Virus record (IMG/VR): IMGVR_UViG_3300045988_010479 | DNA from: a virus | Length of the DNA stretch: 6,008 nucleotides | Direction: 5' to 3' (one strand) | Shown here: in pieces, positions 1 to 6,008 of the stretch | Layout: each line of letters starts with the position of its first letter | Numbering within the stretch: position 1 is the stretch's first letter | The notes under the pieces: model-generated | Databases searched by the model: none | What the model was told of the DNA's origin: nothing | Seen by the model: only the letters and a program-made list of their open reading frames with translations | Program-made: the position numbers and the translations under genes

Positions 1-662
1 ATTTTTTTTGTAACGTATCCTGCAACATATCTATATGTCTCTGGCACTGCTTGTGCTATCTGTATTTGACCCATGTCCCATAGTTCTGATAGCCATTTAC
101 TTGTGTAATATCCGTTGTGCTGTATCTTGTATAGGTGCTCAAGGTCTGTTGGTTGCCATCCATACAGTATCATATGATAATGCGGCCTAGCTGTTTGTTC
201 TCCGTACTCTCCGGCTATAAAATAGCGTAATTTGCCGCTATAAGCCTTTCTGAGACGTTTTAAGAATTTTTGAATGTCAGTATACAGTAACGTTTGTACG
301 CTTTCAGGGCGCTTCTCTCCTGGCTTCCAGACGTATTGTACTTTTCGCATGATTTCGCCTGTGTTTATTATCATGCCCGGTACATGGTCATCATCATAAG
401 TTAATGTGATAAACCAAACTTCTTCTCTTGGATAATCTCTTGCTTCTAATTCTATTCGTGTTGTCCAGTCCTCACGCTGTCGAATTCTGCATCCGATACA
501 CTGCCCACATGGTATTAGCATGACATCTTTTCTATACATCAAATCTTCATATCTTAGCTGCTTCCCGCTTATTTCAGAAAAGCGGGCAAGTGAATACACT
601 TGCCCACTTATGTCTTTATTTTCCGGGTTGTACAGCCTTATTAATGGCTTGTAGCAACTCAC
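1..662 (-). CDS. VP4: Replication initiation protein Rep (VP4), N-terminal ~2/3. Continues across the circular junction into 5552-5983 (bases 1-74 = 5910-5983). Full protein 339 aa.
   Basis: Manual minus-strand translation of 662->1 is open in frame with the 5552..5983 ORF: VSCYKPLIRLYNPENKD...MLIPCGQCIGCRIRQREDWTTRIELE...VWFITLTYDDDH (RCR motif I, ~396-413)...RPHYHMILYG (HUH motif II, ~171-185)...then MGQIQ... of the 3' copy. Not in the ORF track because it is truncated at the window edge. Start assigned to GTG at 662-660, which overlaps the VP2 TGA stop (GTGA), on the assumption that the N-terminus M-x-C-x-x-P-L matches other gokushovirus VP4 N-termini. Alternative ATG starts at 539 or 521 have no better SD. 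Confidence 0.85.
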   Translation of the reverse strand, partial: MSCYKPLIRLYNPENKDISGQVYSLARFSEISGKQLRYEDLMYRKDVMLIPCGQCIGCRIRQREDWTTRIELEARDYPREEVWFITLTYDDDHVPGMIINTGEIMRKVQYVWKPGEKRPESVQTLLYTDIQKFLKRLRKAYSGKLRYFIAGEYGEQTARPHYHMILYGWQPTDLEHLYKIQHNGYYTSKWLSELWDMGQIQIAQAVPETYRYVAGYVTKK

Positions 663-1528
663 TTTAAGTAATCACCCGGCTTTCGTTTTTCTCCGTATGC
701 TCCGGTTTTGTCTTGTGGTTTCATGCTTCTGCTTTGTTCTGTGCTTTTTCCTTTTCCCATTTTATCCGTTGCCTTTGTGATGGCTTCTTTTGTGTTGTCT
801 CCGACTTCTGTAAGTGCTTTTTGCAGTCCGTAAGGCGTCATATGTGTTTCGCTTAGCATTTGTTGCCAGCTTTGCGCCGCGTTGTACCAGTCACTCTGAC
901 TCCAGCTTGAGCTTGAGTATGCATTTGGTACAAACCCTCCGCTTCGGCTTACTCCCAGTGCGCTGCTACTCGCCAGTCCCATACTTGCACCGCTGATTGT
1001 TCCGGCTGATCCGCCCGGTGTGCTTGCGCCTCCGTTTGCAAAGGCTAAGATAGGGTTAAGCCCTGCCTTTTTCATGTCTTCAACGGCTCGCTGGTATGCT
1101 GTGCTTGACATGTGCTCTTGCCATTCACGGTTTGCTAGTGCTTCTGCACTGTTGTAGCTCATTGCTACGCTGTTTTCGATGTGGTTATATACGCCTTGCA
1201 TGATTGCTTGTAAGGTGTTGTAACCCATCTGTTTAAGCATACTCTGACTGTTGTATTTACCTTGCATGGCAGCTTCTTGCCCTTGGTATGCGTATGCCTG
1301 TTTTAGCCAGTCATTTACCTGTTGAATGTTTGTCCCGGCTTGACTTCCACTTTCAGAGTGTCCACCACCCTGACTTACGCTTCCGCCTTGGCTTTGGCTG
1401 TTTCCTGTCTGACCCCATCCGCCGAATGCTCCGGCTACTTGTTTGCTAGCGTTTGCAACTGTTCCGACTGTGTTTGCGATGTTCCCGGCTACGTTGAGTG
1501 CTGTTAAAAATCCTGATAATGCTCCCAT
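659..1528 (-). CDS. VP2: Minor capsid / DNA pilot protein VP2 (289 aa), Gly/Ser/Gln-rich
   Basis: ORF track. ATG at 1528-1526. N-terminus MGALSGFLTALNVAGNIANTVG and a G/S/Q-rich low-complexity core typical of gokushovirus VP2. Immediately follows VP1, as in other Microviridae. Stop TGA at 661-659. Confidence 0.8.
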   Translation of the reverse strand: MGALSGFLTALNVAGNIANTVGTVANASKQVAGAFGGWGQTGNSQSQGGSVSQGGGHSESGSQAGTNIQQVNDWLKQAYAYQGQEAAMQGKYNSQSMLKQMGYNTLQAIMQGVYNHIENSVAMSYNSAEALANREWQEHMSSTAYQRAVEDMKKAGLNPILAFANGGASTPGGSAGTISGASMGLASSSALGVSRSGGFVPNAYSSSSWSQSDWYNAAQSWQQMLSETHMTPYGLQKALTEVGDNTKEAITKATDKMGKGKSTEQSRSMKPQDKTGAYGEKRKPGDYLK

Positions 1529-1566: not shown

Positions 1567-3270
1567 TTACAGTTTGTACAAGCCTGGCACACTGTACAAC
1601 GGCATCCGTCTTGTGGTATTGTTTGCTACTCGGATTGCTCCGAAAAATTGTGGTTCATCTTGCACGATGAGCGTTCGTGCAATTTCTTCCTTTCCTTCCG
1701 ACATCCACTCTTGCGACAGCGTTGGTACGTTTGGATAGTTGTCTGCATAGTGCCAGAAGTCCAGTGTGCCTTCTGCATTGCTTCTCATTTTGCCAGATAC
1801 CCGGTTAGGCTTCATTCTGTAGTCGCTCCAGGCCTCCTGGTAGCCGAAGACCTCCTCATCGCTTGCTTCGCCGGTTAACATGATTTCTTTCTTTTTGACA
1901 GGTTGTTCTCCCAGGTTTGCAAACTGCGGCACGTAGTAGTCAAGTCTGTCTGTTCTGCTCCAGAAACGTTCTAGGCCTTGCTGGTAACTGTGATTGTGCC
2001 GTACACAACAAACACCGATTACAAAACCGTGCTCTTCGAACGATTTGGTAAAGCTGCTTTCGTTGATTGGCGTTACTGACATTGCGCCGGTTTCACCGAT
2101 AGGTGTATCTGCGTTGCTCTGCTGTCCGCTTGTCTGCACGATTTGGTTCATGTTGACGTGATATCTGCCGCCGCCAAGATATTCCGGTACCTGTACTGTT
2201 TTGTCAGAGATAACCACGTTCCACAGTGCTTGTACCTGTTCACGGTAACGGCTGCCACCTCGTGCCAGTGCTTCGTAGTACTGCTGTACTGCTACGGCTT
2301 TTCTCAGGTCGTTTATGGTTGTTGCGGCTATTGATTCGAGGTCTGCATACATCCATCCCCCTGTGCCTGTTTCGGTGCTTGATTTTTCTGTTCCGGTGAA
2401 TTGCATTGCTTTTTTTTCTCCGGGTGCTCCGGTGGAATTTACGTACACTAGAGATCCGGCTGTGTTGACTCCGTGTGCACCTACTACCATTTCTACCGGT
2501 CCGTCGAAATTTTGGTAATTTCCGTCTGGGCTTCCCAATCTGATAGGTGCGTTTCCTGTCATTGGCATCGTCACTTCCGGCCCACGTTGCGGATATGGGA
2601 GACAGCTTGTGAAGTAGTCGTGGAACTTGTTTACCGGTAAACAAAAGCCTCCTTTGTATGCGTTTTCCAATCTGATTTCAATTGTTGCATCTTTTTCGTT
2701 TGGTTTGCTAGTTAGCCCTGTATCGTATTCCACATCTTGGCTGTTCGTTATGATTGTTGCTGCGTTTTCTACGTTTTCGTCTCTGAAATACTCATTCCAG
2801 ATTTTTACATATCCTCTGATTGGTAGTGCGTTGATTTTGAATGTTTTTTTTATTTTTGTTGGCACTCCCATGTAGTCAAGGATAGTTCCTTCTTCTGGCT
2901 TTGGATTTCCTCCTGCTTTTACGGTTACTGTGATTTGTGGTACTTTGTATTCTTTTTTTGGCATCCAAGGTGTATCTTCTACTTCTCCCATGAACTGTTT
3001 GAAGTCATCCCATAGGATTCTATTTGGACAATAGAAGTAGTATAAGTCAATGAATGCATCATCCATCACCGGATATTTCGGTGTGGTCATTCTGATAATT
3101 GCTGAGGTATCTACGTTGAAGGTGTCGCCCGGTAATACTTCGTCCACGTAAAACGGAATCAGTTTGCCGGAATCAAATGTTGTGAGAATAATCTGGTCAC
3201 GGTTGAATCGTGTTCGACTTGCTCTCATTTCTGGAATTTGATTGAAGTGCCGTTCATTGTTTCGATTCAC
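1567..3270 (-). CDS. VP1: Major capsid protein VP1 (567 aa)
   Basis: ORF track. N-terminus ERHFNQIPEMRASRTRFNRDQIILTTFDSGKLIPFYVDEVLPGDTF matches the conserved gokushovirus VP1 N-terminal region (F..IP...R..FDRS..TTFDAG.LIP...DEVLPGDTF). Start is GTG at 3270-3268, preceded by AAAGGAGGAGGAAAA (strong SD), and overlaps the VP3 TGA stop (GTGA). Stop TAA at 1569-1567. Confidence 0.95.
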   Translation of the reverse strand: MNRNNERHFNQIPEMRASRTRFNRDQIILTTFDSGKLIPFYVDEVLPGDTFNVDTSAIIRMTTPKYPVMDDAFIDLYYFYCPNRILWDDFKQFMGEVEDTPWMPKKEYKVPQITVTVKAGGNPKPEEGTILDYMGVPTKIKKTFKINALPIRGYVKIWNEYFRDENVENAATIITNSQDVEYDTGLTSKPNEKDATIEIRLENAYKGGFCLPVNKFHDYFTSCLPYPQRGPEVTMPMTGNAPIRLGSPDGNYQNFDGPVEMVVGAHGVNTAGSLVYVNSTGAPGEKKAMQFTGTEKSSTETGTGGWMYADLESIAATTINDLRKAVAVQQYYEALARGGSRYREQVQALWNVVISDKTVQVPEYLGGGRYHVNMNQIVQTSGQQSNADTPIGETGAMSVTPINESSFTKSFEEHGFVIGVCCVRHNHSYQQGLERFWSRTDRLDYYVPQFANLGEQPVKKKEIMLTGEASDEEVFGYQEAWSDYRMKPNRVSGKMRSNAEGTLDFWHYADNYPNVPTLSQEWMSEGKEEIARTLIVQDEPQFFGAIRVANNTTRRMPLYSVPGLYKL

Positions 3271-3677
3271 TTTTCCTCCTCCTTTGCTTTAGGTTCTGCT
3301 TTTGATTCTGTTTTTGCTCTTTCCGCTGCCATTTTTTGCAGTTCTTCAAGTTTCATGGCGTTTGCCTGTGCTGTTACAATCATGCGGTGATACTCGTGAA
3401 TGTTCTGCGGAAAATCTGTAATATCCGTGTATGTATCGCTTAACGCTCCTTCTGATAGGCTTTTCAGAAACTGCGGGTCGAAGCTTGCTTTTCGGACGAT
3501 GTTTTTGATATCACATTCGTCTGCATAGCTTTCAATTTCCTGCTGGATGTCGATTGGTGCAGTTTCTTGCAGTACTTCTTGTCCTTTTTCGTCCTTCGTC
3601 CATACGTACTGTTTCCGGAGCTTTTCTCCTGATTCAGAAAAGAAGGGCTTTCGCCCTTCTTCGTATCGTTTATTCAC
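3267..3677 (-). CDS. VP3: Internal scaffolding protein VP3 (136 aa from GTG 3677). The ORF is open to a TTG at 3737 (156 aa), which is the ORF-track start.
   Basis: Contains YADECDIKNIVRKASFDPQFL, matching the conserved ECDINNIV box of gokushovirus VP3. No ATG upstream of this box. GTG 3677 is preceded by GGGAGGGCAAGCCGC (SD GGGAGG, 9-nt spacer) and overlaps the stop of the upstream 79-aa ORF by 8 nt (GTGAATAA). TTG 3737 has no SD. Sits immediately 5' of VP1. Confidence 0.75.
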   Translation of the reverse strand: MNKRYEEGRKPFFSESGEKLRKQYVWTKDEKGQEVLQETAPIDIQQEIESYADECDIKNIVRKASFDPQFLKSLSEGALSDTYTDITDFPQNIHEYHRMIVTAQANAMKLEELQKMAAERAKTESKAEPKAKEEEK

Positions 3678-3909
3678 GCGGCTTGCCCTCCCATACCTTT
3701 TCCTTGTCGTTCGTGAACGTGCCTTGCTCGTCTTCAAACACTGCCAGTTTAAAGCCGGTATAGTCGCTGGGTGCCTGCCCTACAAACGTTTTTTCATCCT
3801 TTTCCATCACATTGCACATACGTGCAAAGGTTGCACTGTTTTTGCTCTCGCCTACCCATGCGTAGCACTTTGCTACACTGTCCCACAGGCCAAAATATTC
3901 ATGCTTCAT
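3670..3909 (-). CDS. Hypothetical protein, 79 aa (MKHEYFGLWDSVAKCYAWVGESKNS...)
   Basis: ORF track. ATG at 3909-3907, 10 nt downstream of a tandemly duplicated AAGGAGAATA SD that begins right after the J-like stop. Stop TAA 3672-3670 overlaps the VP3 GTG. No homology recognised by eye. Confidence 0.5.
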   Translation of the reverse strand: MKHEYFGLWDSVAKCYAWVGESKNSATFARMCNVMEKDEKTFVGQAPSDYTGFKLAVFEDEQGTFTNDKEKVWEGKPRE

Positions 3910-3937: not shown

Positions 3938-4060
3938 TTACAGCCGGATGCCGCCTCTCATGGGCTTCTGACTGAGGTTGATAGCTTTGGTTTTTCGTGC
4001 TGTTACGTTAAACATGCGGCGGTCTTTTGCGCCGCTCATTACTTTACGATGTCGTGCCAT
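3938..4060 (-). CDS. Small arginine/lysine-rich DNA-binding (packaging) protein, J / ORF8 (VP8)-like, 40 aa: MARHRKVMSGAKDRRMFNVTARKTKAINLSQKPMRGGIRL
   Basis: Manual translation (below the 60-aa track cutoff). ATG at 4060-4058 with SD GAAGGGAG 7 nt upstream. Very basic (11 K/R/H of 40). C-terminal PMRGGIRL resembles the conserved C-terminus of gokushovirus ORF8/J-like proteins. Overlaps the 3' end of the 75-aa ORF by 17 nt. Stop TAA 3940-3938. Confidence 0.7.
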   Translation of the reverse strand: MARHRKVMSGAKDRRMFNVTARKTKAINLSQKPMRGGIRL

Positions 4061-4271
4061 TTTTATACTCCCTTCTGATTAGTTCTAATTCAATGACGTC
4101 TGTAAAGTCTTTCATTTGCCAAATTTCGTCCAATAGGTTTTTGGCATCGTCGATGTTTACTACTTTTCTAATCATTTTGTAGTTGCTATCGATTTCTTTG
4201 TACTTTCGTTTGAGTAACTCTTCTAGTGCTTCTTTGGTCTGGTCTCGCACGTTCCATGTCTTGTGCATCAT
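4044..4271 (-). CDS. Hypothetical protein, 75 aa (MMHKTWNVRDQTKEALEELLKRKYKEIDSNYKMIRK..., predicted helical and charged)
   Basis: ORF track. ATG 4271-4269 (second ATG 4268-4266). SD AGGAAAGGAG 6-7 nt upstream. Starts 3 nt after the stop of the upstream 40-aa ORF. Confidence 0.5.
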   Translation of the reverse strand: MMHKTWNVRDQTKEALEELLKRKYKEIDSNYKMIRKVVNIDDAKNLLDEIWQMKDFTDVIELELIRREYKNGTTS

Positions 4272-4274
4272 GGT

Positions 4275-4397
4275 TTACTCCTTTCCTTTTTCGTTGATGC
4301 TATCGTGCAGTGCATGATAGATTTCGTCTAGTTTTTCCAGAATCTGCATCATGATGCGGACTGCCTGCTTGACGTCTTTAATGGAAATTAGTGCCAT
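4275..4397 (-). CDS. Hypothetical small protein, 40 aa (MALISIKDVKQAVRIMMQILEKLDEIYHALHDSINEKGKE). The ORF-track version is extended 5' to an internal GTG at 4520 inside the peptidase gene.
   Basis: ATG 4397-4395 preceded by GAAAGGGGGTATAAA (strong SD, 6-7 nt spacer) and placed 1 nt after the peptidase TAA (TAAAATG). Exactly fills the gap between the peptidase and the 75-aa ORF. The 5' extension to 4520 would overlap the peptidase by 122 nt and lacks an SD. Confidence 0.45.
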   Translation of the reverse strand: MALISIKDVKQAVRIMMQILEKLDEIYHALHDSINEKGKE

Positions 4398-4398
4398 T

Positions 4399-4791
4399 TT
4401 ATACCCCCTTTCTGTACTTTTTTCCGGGTCGCACATCAAAGTGTACCCAGCTTTTATATACGATAATGCCGCATTCATCCGGGACGATTTCATCCAGTTT
4501 GTTGGCAAGTTCTTTTGCACTCATGTCATTGACCCGGATATCTGCTGCCATTCCGCGCATGTGGTAGCTGTATTTTGCTCCGTTGCATTTTTTGTTCCAT
4601 TCTGGTGTTCTGTATCCGCTGGTGATGATTACCGGCTTTCCTAGTTTATTTCGGAGGATGTCCAGAACGTTATATAAGTAGTCGTCTATGAATACTACCG
4701 GACTGCCGTCTTTACATGCAAATTCTTTTACTTTGAAGTGTTTTGCAAGTTGTACGTTTCCGTCTGTGTTCATGATATAGCTTTTAAGCAT
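4399..4791 (-). CDS. Peptidase_M15 family (M15A, zinc D-Ala-D-Ala carboxypeptidase-like, YcbK/endolysin-type) protein, 130 aa from ATG 4791. The ORF is open to TTG 4815 (138 aa).
   Basis: LAKHFKVKEFACKDGS N-terminal box plus zinc-ligand arrangement SYHMRGMAADIRV (H...D) and VHFDVR (H), characteristic of Peptidase_M15. ATG 4791 has AAGGAG 9 nt upstream and overlaps the TAA of the preceding 56-aa ORF (TAAGGAG). No signal peptide or TM segment. Confidence 0.8.
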   Translation of the reverse strand: MLKSYIMNTDGNVQLAKHFKVKEFACKDGSPVVFIDDYLYNVLDILRNKLGKPVIITSGYRTPEWNKKCNGAKYSYHMRGMAADIRVNDMSAKELANKLDEIVPDECGIIVYKSWVHFDVRPGKKYRKGV

Positions 4792-4804
4792 TTTTGTCAA
4801 CTCC

Positions 4805-4975
4805 TTAAAAATCAAATGTTTGGTCTATTCTGTAGAGCGTTACTTTTATTACGTTTGCTTCTGCTCTACATTTTTTCGCTTTTTCTTTTGCGTCTCTGGT
4901 TGTTTCTATCCACATCTTTTGTTCTTTTGTACCGTTTTCGAAATATACTCTTACCAAAAATTTGTACTGTCTCAT
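4805..4975 (-). CDS. Hypothetical protein, 56 aa from ATG 4975 (MRQYKFLVRVYFENGTKEQKMWIETTRDAKEKAKKCRAEANVIKVTLYRIDQTFDF). The track ORF is extended to GTG 5035 (76 aa).
   Basis: ATG 4975-4973 with GAAGGGAAGGT 7 nt upstream. The 5' extension to 5035 would cover a consensus extended -10 promoter, so the shorter form is preferred. First gene after the large non-coding region. Stop TAA 4807-4805. Confidence 0.45.
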   Translation of the reverse strand: MRQYKFLVRVYFENGTKEQKMWIETTRDAKEKAKKCRAEANVIKVTLYRIDQTFDF

Positions 4976-5006
4976 GGTTCTTACCTTCCCTTCTTTTTCT
5001 GATTCT

Positions 5007-5023
5007 ATTATACCATATGTCAA
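5007..5023 (-). promoter_or_regulatory. Candidate sigma-70-type extended -10 promoter driving the accessory operon (minus strand: TTGACA TATGG TATAAT, i.e. TGGTATAAT)
   Basis: Minus-strand TATAAT at 5012-5007 preceded by TGG (TGnTATAAT extended -10 consensus). A perfect TTGACA hexamer at 5023-5018 is only 5 bp away, too close to act as -35 for this -10. Predicted TSS ~5000, giving a ~25-nt leader with an SD before ATG 4975. Confidence 0.45.
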
Positions 5024-5059
5024 TAGGCTTTTCACTGATTTTCCTGTTTTGTAATAAAA

Positions 5060-5080
5060 TTGTAACCTTCTCTTGTAACC
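5060..5080. repeat. Direct repeat TTGTAACC x2 (5060-5067, 5073-5080) plus a related TTGTAAT (5049-5055), 35-75 bp upstream of the candidate promoter
   Basis: Read directly from the sequence: tttTGTAATaaaaTTGTAACCttctcTTGTAACCcgg. Confidence 0.5.
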
Positions 5081-5104
5081 CGGTTTTGCTCCTTTGTTTT
5101 GAAT

Positions 5105-5118
5105 GGCGCTTTAGCGCC
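5105..5118. repeat. Near-palindrome GGCGCTTTAGCGCC. Its core CGCTTTAGCG (5107-5116) is repeated directly at 5322-5331, bracketing the TTCAACA arrays.
   Basis: Exact 10-bp match at the two positions. First copy forms a 5-6-bp GC stem. Confidence 0.5.
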
Positions 5119-5180
5119 TTGCCGTGTGTAGCGCATGCGGAACTCGGCTAAATCCATTCCTTTTTAGCGCTGTGCGCGTT

Positions 5181-5300
5181 TTCAACACTTTCAACACTTT
5201 CAACACTTTCAACAGGTTTTCAACAAAATGTTGCACAATGATTTTCGTTATTTTGACGAACTTTCAACATTTCAACAAGTTTTCAACAAAACTTTCAACA
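5181..5300. repeat. Iteron-like arrays of TTCAACA (minus strand TGTTGAA), nine same-orientation copies. Array A: 5181, 5190, 5199, 5208 (exact 9-bp period, CTTTCAACA x4) plus 5219. Array B: 5263, 5271, 5282, 5294. Degenerate TTGCACA at 5231 and TTCAAC at 5348.
   Basis: Read directly from the sequence. All copies are non-coding and sit between the accessory-operon promoter and the rep 3' end. Confidence 0.85.
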
Positions 5301-5400
5301 TTGTTTTTTGCTTTTTATTTACGCTTTAGCGTTAAATTTTAGCACTTTTCAACTTTTCCACTACCTCTACTACTACTCCTACAACAAGTTAATATTATAT

Positions 5401-5444
5401 TGCGCGTGCGCGCGTGCGCGCTATCGCGCGTGCGTGCACGTGCG
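5401..5444. repeat. Alternating purine-pyrimidine (CG/TG) tract, Z-DNA-prone: TGCGCGTGCGCGCGTGCGCGC-TAT-CGCGCGTGCGTGCACGTGCG
   Basis: A 21-nt and a 20-nt perfectly alternating Pu/Py run separated by TAT. About 75% GC, embedded in AT-rich non-coding DNA (TTAATATTATAT immediately upstream). Internal GCGCGTGCGCGC repeats. Confidence 0.8.
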
Positions 5445-5458
5445 AATTAGATTACCTG

Positions 5459-5476
5459 ATAGACTGAATAGACTGA
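5459..5476. repeat. Tandem 9-bp repeat ATAGACTGA x2 (context cTGATAGACTGAATAGACTGATACATAG)
   Basis: Exact tandem copies at 5459-5467 and 5468-5476. Confidence 0.7.
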
Positions 5477-5500
5477 TACATAGAGCTTTTAAACGACAAT

Positions 5501-5532
5501 AGCCCAGTACCTTACTTGATAGGTACTGGGCT
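5501..5532. promoter_or_regulatory. Perfect 12-bp-stem hairpin (AGCCCAGTACCT / AGGTACTGGGCT) with 8-nt loop TACTTGAT, 20-50 nt 3' of the rep stop on the coding strand. Candidate rep transcription terminator and/or replication-origin stem-loop.
   Basis: Exact inverted repeat read from the sequence. A second small hairpin GACACTgttaaAGTGTC (5541-5557) covers the rep stop codon. Confidence 0.6.
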
Positions 5533-5551
5533 AGGTGACACTATGACACTG

Positions 5552-6008
5552 TTAAAGTGTCCCCCTCTTCTTCATCTGCTTCTTTATCACTCTCTCTTTC
5601 GTTTTACACTGTTCTGCAAAGTTTGCATTTTCATACTTAAGTCGGTTCTCTGCGATTGCTGCTGCTTGTCTGTTCTGCTTAATTCTCCACAATCTTTGTG
5701 GGTTTTCAGCTTCCATCATTTTTTCATAATAGCGCGGAATTTGTGCGTGTTTGCCGTTTGTGCATTGGATGTAGCCTTGTCTCCAGATTTCTTCTTTGTG
5801 CTTTTTGTAATAGTTATCTCCTAGGCCTGGCTTAAGGCTCATACGTGCAAAAGGTTTTTGCTGCCCTAGTTCATAGTATGCGTTTGCTTTCTGGCCGTCA
5901 ATTTCGTACATTTTTTTTGTAACGTATCCTGCAACATATCTATATGTCTCTGGCACTGCTTGTGCTATCTGTATTTGACCCATGTCCCATAGTTCTGATA
6001 GCCATTTA
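5552..6008 (-). CDS. VP4: Replication initiation protein Rep (VP4), C-terminal part (143 aa from the internal Met plus upstream codons), truncated by the window end. Upstream part is 100-662 on the circle.
   Basis: ORF track 5552..5983 (-). Contains RYVAGYVTKKMYEID (RCR motif III with two catalytic Tyr, near-identical to phiX174 gpA YVAKYVNKK) at 5912-5938. Stop TAA at 5552-5554. The frame stays open from 5984 to 6008, consistent with continuation at 75-662. Confidence 0.9.
   Translation of the reverse strand, partial: KWLSELWDMGQIQIAQAVPETYRYVAGYVTKKMYEIDGQKANAYYELGQQKPFARMSLKPGLGDNYYKKHKEEIWRQGYIQCTNGKHAQIPRYYEKMMEAENPQRLWRIKQNRQAAAIAENRLKYENANFAEQCKTKERVIKKQMKKRGTL
5910..6008. repeat. Exact 99-bp direct repeat of bases 1-99 (terminal redundancy from wrapping a circular 5909-bp genome, or the start of a second tandem unit)
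   Basis: Bases 1-99 and 5910-6008 are identical base for base. The repeat runs to the window end, so its true extent is unknown. Confidence 0.95.

Follow-up and report, generated by a model that had tools for sequence, protein, structure and literature searches.

The 6,008-nucleotide (nt) stretch of viral DNA analysed here (IMG/VR record IMGVR_UViG_3300045988_010479, referred to below as the window) comprises the whole genome of a gut gokushovirus, with a Peptidase_M15_3 gene (MEROPS M15A-like) on the minus strand at positions 4399..4791. The 130-residue product (14.9 kDa, isoelectric point 9.3) is probably a catalytically competent M15_3/M15A peptidase and most likely the endolysin of the virus, taken from Clostridia-type lysis cassettes without a holin and now fixed in the clade. 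The peptidase is real but already known, having been reported in 2012 and annotated in close GenBank relatives. What is added here is that the gene is essentially universal in a clade defined by its capsid protein (78/80 genomes), that two divergent alleles occupy one slot and that cellular and viral loci contrast in their neighbouring membrane-type open reading frames (ORFs), which are found at 57/65 cellular loci and in 0/111 viral genomes.

Peptidase family and active site

The gene runs from an ATG at 4791-4789 to a TAA at 4401-4399, and a Shine-Dalgarno site, AAGGAG, is read directly from the sequence at 4801..4806, 9 nt upstream of the start codon. An earlier note on this DNA had placed a Peptidase_M15 gene of a microvirus at this position, citing an H...D...H zinc triad, the peptide VHFDVR and an N-terminal box. 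Its coordinates agree with the minus-strand frame of 130 residues and its ribosome-binding site, and the motifs that it quoted are all present in the translation, which contains LAKHFKVKEFAC (residues 15-26), SYHMRGMAADIRV (residues 75-87) and VHFDVR (residues 116-121). Profile hidden Markov model searches, which the note had proposed as a check on the family, bear it out: Pfam PF08291 (Peptidase_M15_3) is matched over positions 1-108 of its 108 (E = 3.9e-22, 78.9 bits against a cut-off of 23.2) and PHROG 894, annotated 'endolysin', is matched with E = 3.5e-44. This family match is far beyond chance and can be regarded as secure.

An overlapping match to Peptidase_M15_2 (PF05951) is weaker and partial (32.2 bits, profile positions 52-149 of 153). 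Identity with the MepK/YcbK L,D-endopeptidases was rejected, as PF08291 outscores PF05951 and NCBIfam NF053624 is matched with 42.3 bits against an equivalog cut-off of 185. An L-Ala-D-Glu peptidase of the VanY/M15C type (T5 EndoT5, Ply500 and LysB4) was rejected by its scores on the VanY and Peptidase_M15_4 profiles and for want of close structural similarity. An exact-sequence look-up of the window peptidase returned no record, and a cluster look-up of its ten nearest representatives yielded neither names nor taxa.

A profile built from 20 relatives matches the Streptomyces albus G zinc D-Ala-D-Ala carboxypeptidase (PDB entry 1LBU) with E = 1.2e-11, and the protein belongs to the LAS (hedgehog / DD-peptidase) fold. 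In the alignment the S-x-H-x-x-G-x-A-A-D element of the profile lies on NSRHMYGHAAD of 1LBU, and H77 and D84 fall on the 1LBU metal ligands H154 and D161 (positions counted on the printed alignment). The codon of H77, the first zinc ligand (motif S-Y-H-M-R-G), is at 4561..4563 and that of D84, the second (motif A-A-D-I), at 4540..4542. This H-x6-D pair is accompanied by a C-terminal histidine, H117 (codon 4441..4443, motif W-V-H-F-D), which lies at the C-terminal end of the Pfam match and is the putative third ligand in view of its conservation and of the full-length profile match. D119 (codon 4435..4437), two residues past H117, is a candidate catalytic residue, and R61 (codon 4609..4611), in an invariant S-G-Y-R-T motif, aligns with R138 in the GGFRS motif of 1LBU.

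H77, D84 and D119 are invariant in 83 aligned viral copies and H117 is present in 82/83; apart from the one copy without H117, the mutated triad in relatives that the earlier note had named as a sign of a non-catalytic remnant was not seen in these copies. H77 and H117 are also retained in 20/20 diverse relatives, and the residues that are invariant in 20 relatives of 36-70% identity comprise S58, Y60, R61, N66, S75, H77, G80, A82, D84, G108, H117, D119 and R121. The median ratio of nonsynonymous to synonymous substitution rates (dN/dS) to the window copy is 0.15 (79 pairs). The intact conserved residues and the low dN/dS together indicate purifying selection and an intact active site, and a reading of the gene as a remnant fails. 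By homology, the viral peptidase would be expected to bind zinc and to have muralytic activity.

Conservation in the clade and origin of the gene

IMG/VR contains 253 contigs that encode a relative of the peptidase. The 80 that were retrieved, almost all of 4.2-6.3 kb, encode proteins of 72-92% identity and keep one gene order (peptidase, 40-residue ORF, 75-residue ORF, arginine-rich ORF, VP5, VP3, VP1, VP2 and Rep). To avoid selection on the peptidase, a further sample of 80 IMG/VR contigs was picked by VP1 similarity only (70-82% identity). The peptidase is present in the same slot in 78 of them, and the two exceptions are probably incomplete, since they are short (4.7 and 5.1 kb); this distribution indicates a fixed component of the clade and not a sporadic capture. 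About 1,490 clusters in a set of 5.8 billion proteins match the peptidase, with the best 120 lying mostly on contigs of at most about 6 kb. Clade contigs of 1.5-2 times the unit genome also occur (L046/L209, 10,917 nt; L183, 10,711 nt; L169, 8,781 nt) and are probably concatemeric or mis-closed assemblies.

The peptidase of 15 of the 78 VP1-picked genomes (L181, L183, L184, L186, L189, L192, L198, L203-L206, L208 and L210-L212) is only 46-51% identical to that of the window, yet their Rep proteins are 79-91% and their VP1 proteins 69-74% identical. Thirteen of these 15 divergent peptidases are full length, with all catalytic motifs and a C-terminal YRKGV tail, and one is truncated; in both genomes that were mapped (L184 and L192) the divergent gene occupies the same slot. 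The sequences point to two or more divergent classes of allele, with about 50% identity to each other, that share one locus through allele replacement or recombination, which fits the occasional recombination of the peptidase region between microviruses reported by Kirchberger et al. (PMC9239249). At 4397-4410 (minus strand) the end of the window gene, AAG GGG GTA TAA, doubles as the Shine-Dalgarno site of the following 40-residue ORF, the ATG of which lies 1 nt past the stop codon. The RKGV tail, common to both allele classes, may be kept on account of this overlap and not for the function of the enzyme.

A search of 1.84 billion cluster representatives (50% identity) gives 11,337 matches at E <= 0.001. 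The nearest clusters beyond the microviral one are 45-50% identical, and many of the longer near clusters are modular wall hydrolases (GH25+M15_3, M15_3+SH3_3 or M15_3+PG_binding_1) or large surface proteins. The closest modular cluster (P0128, a 360-residue GH25+M15_3 protein with a longest contig of 6,038 nt) was considered as a two-domain microvirus lysin and rejected, as its neighbours are CI-like repressors and its contig is a fragment of a temperate phage. When one genome per prokaryotic species was scanned with a single peptide pattern, FKV[RKS]EFAC, drawn from six sequences, 111 relatives were obtained, none of them above 50% identity. The best 80 of these 111 comprise 77 from Bacillota, two from one Bacteroidales contig and one that is unclassified, and the Bacillota relatives are overwhelmingly Clostridia (Acutalibacteraceae, Faecalibacterium, Oscillospiraceae, Dysosmobacter, Lachnospiraceae and Lacrimispora).

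The surroundings of the cellular genes often resemble a lysis cassette, with PHROG holins at both loci that were checked. Upstream of a stand-alone 130-residue homologue from Acutalibacteraceae (L083, 50% identity) lie genes for a tail protein, an XhlA-like 'hemolysin' and a PHROG 443 holin, and a PHROG 263 holin follows the homologue from Faecalibacterium (L090). A small same-strand ORF with a transmembrane-like segment lies within 1.5 kb of the gene at 57/65 cellular loci, compared with 0/111 microvirus genomes. This hydropathy test of neighbours is a crude one, and control stretches show its background to be high: at cellular loci with full flanks such ORFs are found near the gene in 28/34 cases (62 ORFs) and in stretches 4.5-6 kb away in 14/34 (21 ORFs). 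The viral gene nevertheless looks like an endolysin gene from a tailed-phage lysis cassette that was taken without its holin. Among GenBank phages, 677 records contain a relative; those at about 40% identity comprise, among others, proteins annotated as endolysins in Klebsiella, Proteus and Yersinia phages and a Salmonella SP6 record without annotation.

Peptidases of PF08291 were reported by Roux et al. in 2012 (PMC3394797) in five gokushovirus and six alpavirus genomes from human samples. These authors described horizontal acquisition and holins beside the bacterial homologues, and in their analysis four of the gokushovirus copies cluster with Faecalibacterium and Anaerofustis; they suggested that the enzyme acts as an endolysin and, as speculation, that the hosts are Gram-positive (PMC3394797). 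Later surveys repeat the point (PMC7062461, PMC9239249, PMC9865509 and PMC11499846). The mention in the earlier note of M15-type peptidases in metagenomic Microviridae is thus supported by the 2012 study, as well as by GenBank annotation.

Lytic role and alternatives

The earlier note had listed holin-less lysis, an entry hydrolase and host gene capture as the functional options, and these are the right ones to weigh. According to the endolysin reading, a single-domain zinc peptidoglycan peptidase of the LAS fold would be made in the cytoplasm during infection and would cut peptide stems or cross-links of the host wall, leading to release of the progeny. Its gene would descend from the lysis cassettes that tailed phages or prophages carry in Bacillota of the Clostridia type; the capture would have left the holin behind, and the gene would then have become fixed, under purifying selection, in a large clade of mammalian-gut gokushoviruses. 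Access to the wall could result from damage to the membrane by a different viral protein (the VP2 pilot protein, for example) or from a late collapse of the membrane potential. We infer the expression timing, the bond that is cut, the host (Clostridia) and the signal-less route to the wall.

Several observations weigh against this assignment. A canonical holin-endolysin system is only half represented: the hydrolase domain is related to known endolysins, but neither a holin or pinholin nor a signal or signal-arrest-release sequence was found. No coding-strand ORF of at least 25 residues in the window has a transmembrane-like segment, the highest 19-residue Kyte-Doolittle mean being 1.12. The peptidase has no signal peptide, and its residues 2-6 are a confident β-strand of the fold; the earlier note had likewise seen no signal peptide, transmembrane helix or holin-like neighbour. 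Among 112 related genomes no membrane-type coding-strand ORF is consistently present, and only sporadic, non-homologous hydrophobic frames were found. The closest solved relative is a D-Ala-D-Ala carboxypeptidase, and such an activity alone would not lyse a cell. The literature searched gave no activity, expression or knockout data on an M15-type microvirus enzyme. A member of the Clostridia is the probable host, as suggested indirectly by the nearest relatives of the enzyme, by published predictions and by the strength of the Shine-Dalgarno sites; infant-gut gokushoviruses have been predicted to infect Clostridiales (PMC10159846). The single search pattern makes for a biased taxon sample behind this Clostridia signal, and homologues at about 40% identity also act as endolysins in Gram-negative podophages.

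Other candidates for a membrane-active partner were examined and rejected. A very hydrophobic plus-strand ORF of 137 residues (4738-5151) lies antisense and upstream of the peptidase, and Roux et al. (PMC3394797) noted a complementary-strand ORF beside one peptidase. In 106 genomes the corresponding stop-free stretch varies from 22 to 171 codons (median 71), so the ORF is not conserved in relatives and is a consequence of the T-richness of the antisense strand; the window has several further antisense ORFs of at least about 100 residues, as expected opposite an A-rich coding strand. Transmembrane-like coding-strand frames in L184, L192 and L026 lie inside the frame of the arginine-rich gene or VP1, occur in only 2-3 of 112 genomes and have an unclear start codon. 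An overprinted lysis gene like E was not found, with no coding-strand frame of at least 25 codons above the hydropathy of 1.12. The N-terminus of the VP2 pilot protein, which is mildly hydrophobic and rich in Gly and Ala, is the only candidate membrane-active element, and such a role for it is speculation.

A bolder version of the endolysin reading is conceivable but rather doubtful: the clade would infect monoderm Clostridia, and the holin-less and signal-less M15A enzyme would be its sole dedicated lysis protein, with non-canonical access to the wall (e.g. through permeabilization by VP2 or collapse of the membrane potential). If true, these would be the first Microviridae shown on a wall-bearing Gram-positive host, and their lysis would be a minimal one-enzyme form distinct from both holin-endolysin and phiX174 E-type lysis.

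It is unlikely that the peptidase is instead an accessory wall-remodelling enzyme and not a lysis effector, acting as a D,D-carboxypeptidase that trims pentapeptide stems or by cutting cross-links. Its purpose could be to weaken the wall, to change the receptor or superinfection, or to speed lysis by an unrecognised viral or host factor. The activity of the closest solved structure, a carboxypeptidase and no endopeptidase, would agree with this, as would the absence of a holin, which suits a non-canonical role. The peptidase is also wanting in subgroups 6 and 7 of the Occultatumvirinae (PMC11499846) and in gokushoviruses generally (PMC7062461), and for these peptidase-less groups another release route must exist in the family. 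However, an unexported intracellular enzyme cannot remodel the wall either, which is the same problem of access; the relatives with about 40% identity in PHROG and GenBank serve their phages as endolysins, and a PF08291 enzyme lyses permeabilized cells. The gene is, moreover, kept in 78/80 relatives with a dN/dS of 0.15 in a size-constrained genome of 5.9 kb, which argues for a core step of the cycle.

An entry-associated hydrolase, carried in or on the virion and opening the wall locally at DNA delivery, is quite improbable. PRD1 P7 and phi6 P5 act as virion-borne entry hydrolases. A thick Gram-positive host wall would make such an enzyme particularly valuable, and it is not obvious how an intracellular enzyme could get to the wall without a holin or export signal. 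The peptidase is small and basic (14.9 kDa, isoelectric point 9.3), and some relatives occur as domains within surface-type proteins of great length (1078 and 1956 residues), alongside Big_2, fn3 and Flg_new repeats. The hydrolase Gp7 of the microvirus Ebor was detected in virions by liquid chromatography-tandem mass spectrometry, in trace amount only (PMC11980548), an amount that is compatible with contamination. The gene of the window lies in a small non-structural block between Rep and VP5/VP3 and does not adjoin VP1 or VP2, and the closest cellular homologues hold the endolysin position by holins and are not fused to tail or virion proteins. A T=1 capsid that holds a 5.9-kb genome, VP2 and a basic DNA-binding protein also has little room left.

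Both the wall-trimming and the entry alternatives are less well supported than the endolysin assignment; the neighbours of the gene are non-structural, and its homologues are in the endolysin position. A non-functional remnant or assembly chimera, considered since a horizontally acquired gene in a metagenomic contig may be an artefact, has nothing found in its favour and is extremely improbable, given the intact triad and family-invariant residues, the dN/dS of 0.15, the 253 IMG/VR contigs with a relative (80 of them retrieved with a common gene order), the gene's presence in independent GenBank genomes from human samples in France and China and from pig-faeces viromes, and the closure of the window by an exact 99-nt overlap with its genes all on one strand.

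The importance of the gene is modest, as the literature has covered its presence, horizontal origin and presumed role in lysis from 2012 onwards. Two questions are experimentally tractable: how a 6-kb virus without a holin or E-like protein delivers a cytoplasmic hydrolase to the wall, and whether abundant gut gokushoviruses infect Gram-positive Clostridia, as the relatives of the enzyme and host predictions suggest. The conserved single-domain enzyme of 130 residues is an easy expression target and a possible clue to host range.

Carrier genome and comparison with known systems

The first and last 99 nt of the window are identical (1-99 = 5910-6008, an exact terminal direct repeat), and from this overlap the genome is circular, with a true size of 5,909 nt and the Rep gene across the junction. 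All recognisable genes are on the minus strand, in the order VP4/Rep (662 to 1 and 5909 to 5552), a 394-nt intergenic region, a 41-residue ORF, an ORF of 56-76 residues, the peptidase, ORFs of 40 and 75 residues, an arginine-rich ORF of 40 residues, VP5, VP3, VP1 and VP2. In a megablast search against GenBank phages the closest records are Gokushovirus WZ-2015a (KT264791; human faeces, France), with 86% identity across 89% of the window, and Human gut gokushovirus (KX513868; China), with 84%, followed by a series of pig-faeces Microviridae. The VP1-VP5 set, the circular genome within the range of about 4.5-6 kb, the single coding strand and the classification of the nearest GenBank records all place the virus in the Gokushovirinae, so that the microvirus carrier proposed by the earlier note is a gokushovirus by its VP1-VP5 profile matches.

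The structural genes are the VP1 major capsid protein (1567..3270; Pfam Phage_F, E = 2.8e-141), the VP2 DNA pilot protein (659..1528; PHROG 8742, E = 2.2e-125) and the VP3 internal scaffold (3267..3737; Chlamy_scaf, Pfam PF09675, E = 9.8e-12), with VP5 (Phage_ORF5) at 3670..3909 (Pfam PF20577, E = 1e-7, and PHROG 1670). VP4/Rep is a 339-residue ORF on the circularised genome; its N-terminal part, an open frame at 1..662, wraps the circle, and its C-terminal part at 5552..6008 matches the replication initiation protein PHROG 942 (E = 7.8e-36). Between VP5 and the peptidase lie the arginine-rich protein of 40 residues (3938..4060; isoelectric point 12; phrog_10695, E = 9.6e-11), a charged ORF of 75 residues (4044..4271), which was identified by ORF calling and is part of a conserved backbone kept in relatives, and an ORF of 40 residues, AAGGGGGTATAAAATG (4275..4397), which is helical and not hydrophobic and starts 1 nt past the peptidase stop. 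The last of these is found in 77/78 peptidase-bearing relatives and in both peptidase-less contigs, and gave no family match in Pfam, PHROG and NCBIfam searches.

The stretch from Rep to the peptidase is the variable part of genomes in the clade. A basic ORF of 41 residues (5032..5157) is shared by most relatives. The accessory ORF of 56 residues just upstream of the peptidase (4805..4975; 76 residues from a GTG at 5035) is found in only 5-6 of about 80; its ATG is at 4975, with the ribosome-binding site GGGAAGG. Strong Shine-Dalgarno sites precede most genes of the window, and promoter-like matches around the peptidase gene are at chance level (four found, 3.9 expected).

The intergenic region after Rep (5158..5551) contains a hairpin, a GC-rich tract and copies of TGTTGAAA. 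The hairpin (5533-5500, minus strand) is terminator-like, with 13 pairs and a T-rich tail, and lies directly past the Rep stop. The alternating GC-rich tract (about 5398-5442, minus strand) consists of about four copies of GCGCGTGC-like units in surroundings of 38-40% GC. Nine exact copies of TGTTGAAA occur at 5180-5300 (minus strand), with 0.4 expected by chance, and four of them are arranged head to tail with a 9-bp period. At least two copies are present in 111/111 related genomes, usually seven, and the element is the commonest 8-mer in 68 of them. The array resembles iterons or stacked -35-like boxes.

The likeness of the viral peptidase to known systems differs in degree. MepK/YcbK (Peptidase_M15_2, DUF882) belongs to the same clan, as reflected in the weak overlapping PF05951 match, but the viral protein is without an N-terminal export signal. 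Protein E of phiX174 provides the lysis function in the same virus family by an unrelated mechanism, the inhibition of MraY, which blocks wall synthesis; it is a small membrane protein whose gene is overprinted within another, whereas the window is without an overprinted coding-strand frame that has a membrane segment. Gokushoviruses lack the phiX174 E gene (PMC7062461). Gp7 of the microvirus Ebor (about 146 residues) was in 2025 the first peptidoglycan hydrolase of a single-stranded DNA phage to be verified biochemically (PMC11980548). The statement in the earlier note that no functional characterisation was known therefore does not hold for microvirus hydrolases as a whole, although it stands for M15-type enzymes, for which no microvirus assay was found in the literature searched. 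Unlike the window virus, Ebor is a member of the Tainavirinae with a Rhodobacter host and a predicted membrane protein, Gp1. The HHpred template of Gp7, 6SSC, is absent from the sequence and fold matches of the window protein, so the two probably belong to different enzyme families.

The S. albus G carboxypeptidase (MEROPS M15A) is only about 21% identical to the viral protein, so its substrate specificity is not transferable. It is secreted and has an extra N-terminal peptidoglycan-binding domain, whereas the viral protein is a bare catalytic domain without a signal. Zymograms and turbidity reduction with chloroform-permeabilized cells show the 'peptidase M15A' (PF08291) of Burkholderia phage ST79 to be muralytic (PMC5025407). 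Like the window peptidase it is a single-domain PF08291 phage enzyme (about 18 kDa with its tag), but ST79 is a tailed double-stranded DNA phage with a full set of holin, LysB and LysC and a Gram-negative host. The M15_3 endolysins of Clostridia prophages (L083 and L090) are the nearest cellular homologues, with 44-50% identity, and L083 has the same length of 130 residues and the same PHROG; their genes adjoin holins (phrog_443 and phrog_263) and tail genes, whereas the viral gene is without such a partner. Closest of all are the viral orthologues. KT264791 contains an unannotated copy with 86% protein identity to that of the window, and in KX513868 the orthologous slot is annotated 'peptidase M15' (coding sequence ARQ16010). 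With respect to the M15_3 peptidases of gut Gokushovirinae and Alpavirinae described by Roux et al., the window gene is another member, with no difference of substance.

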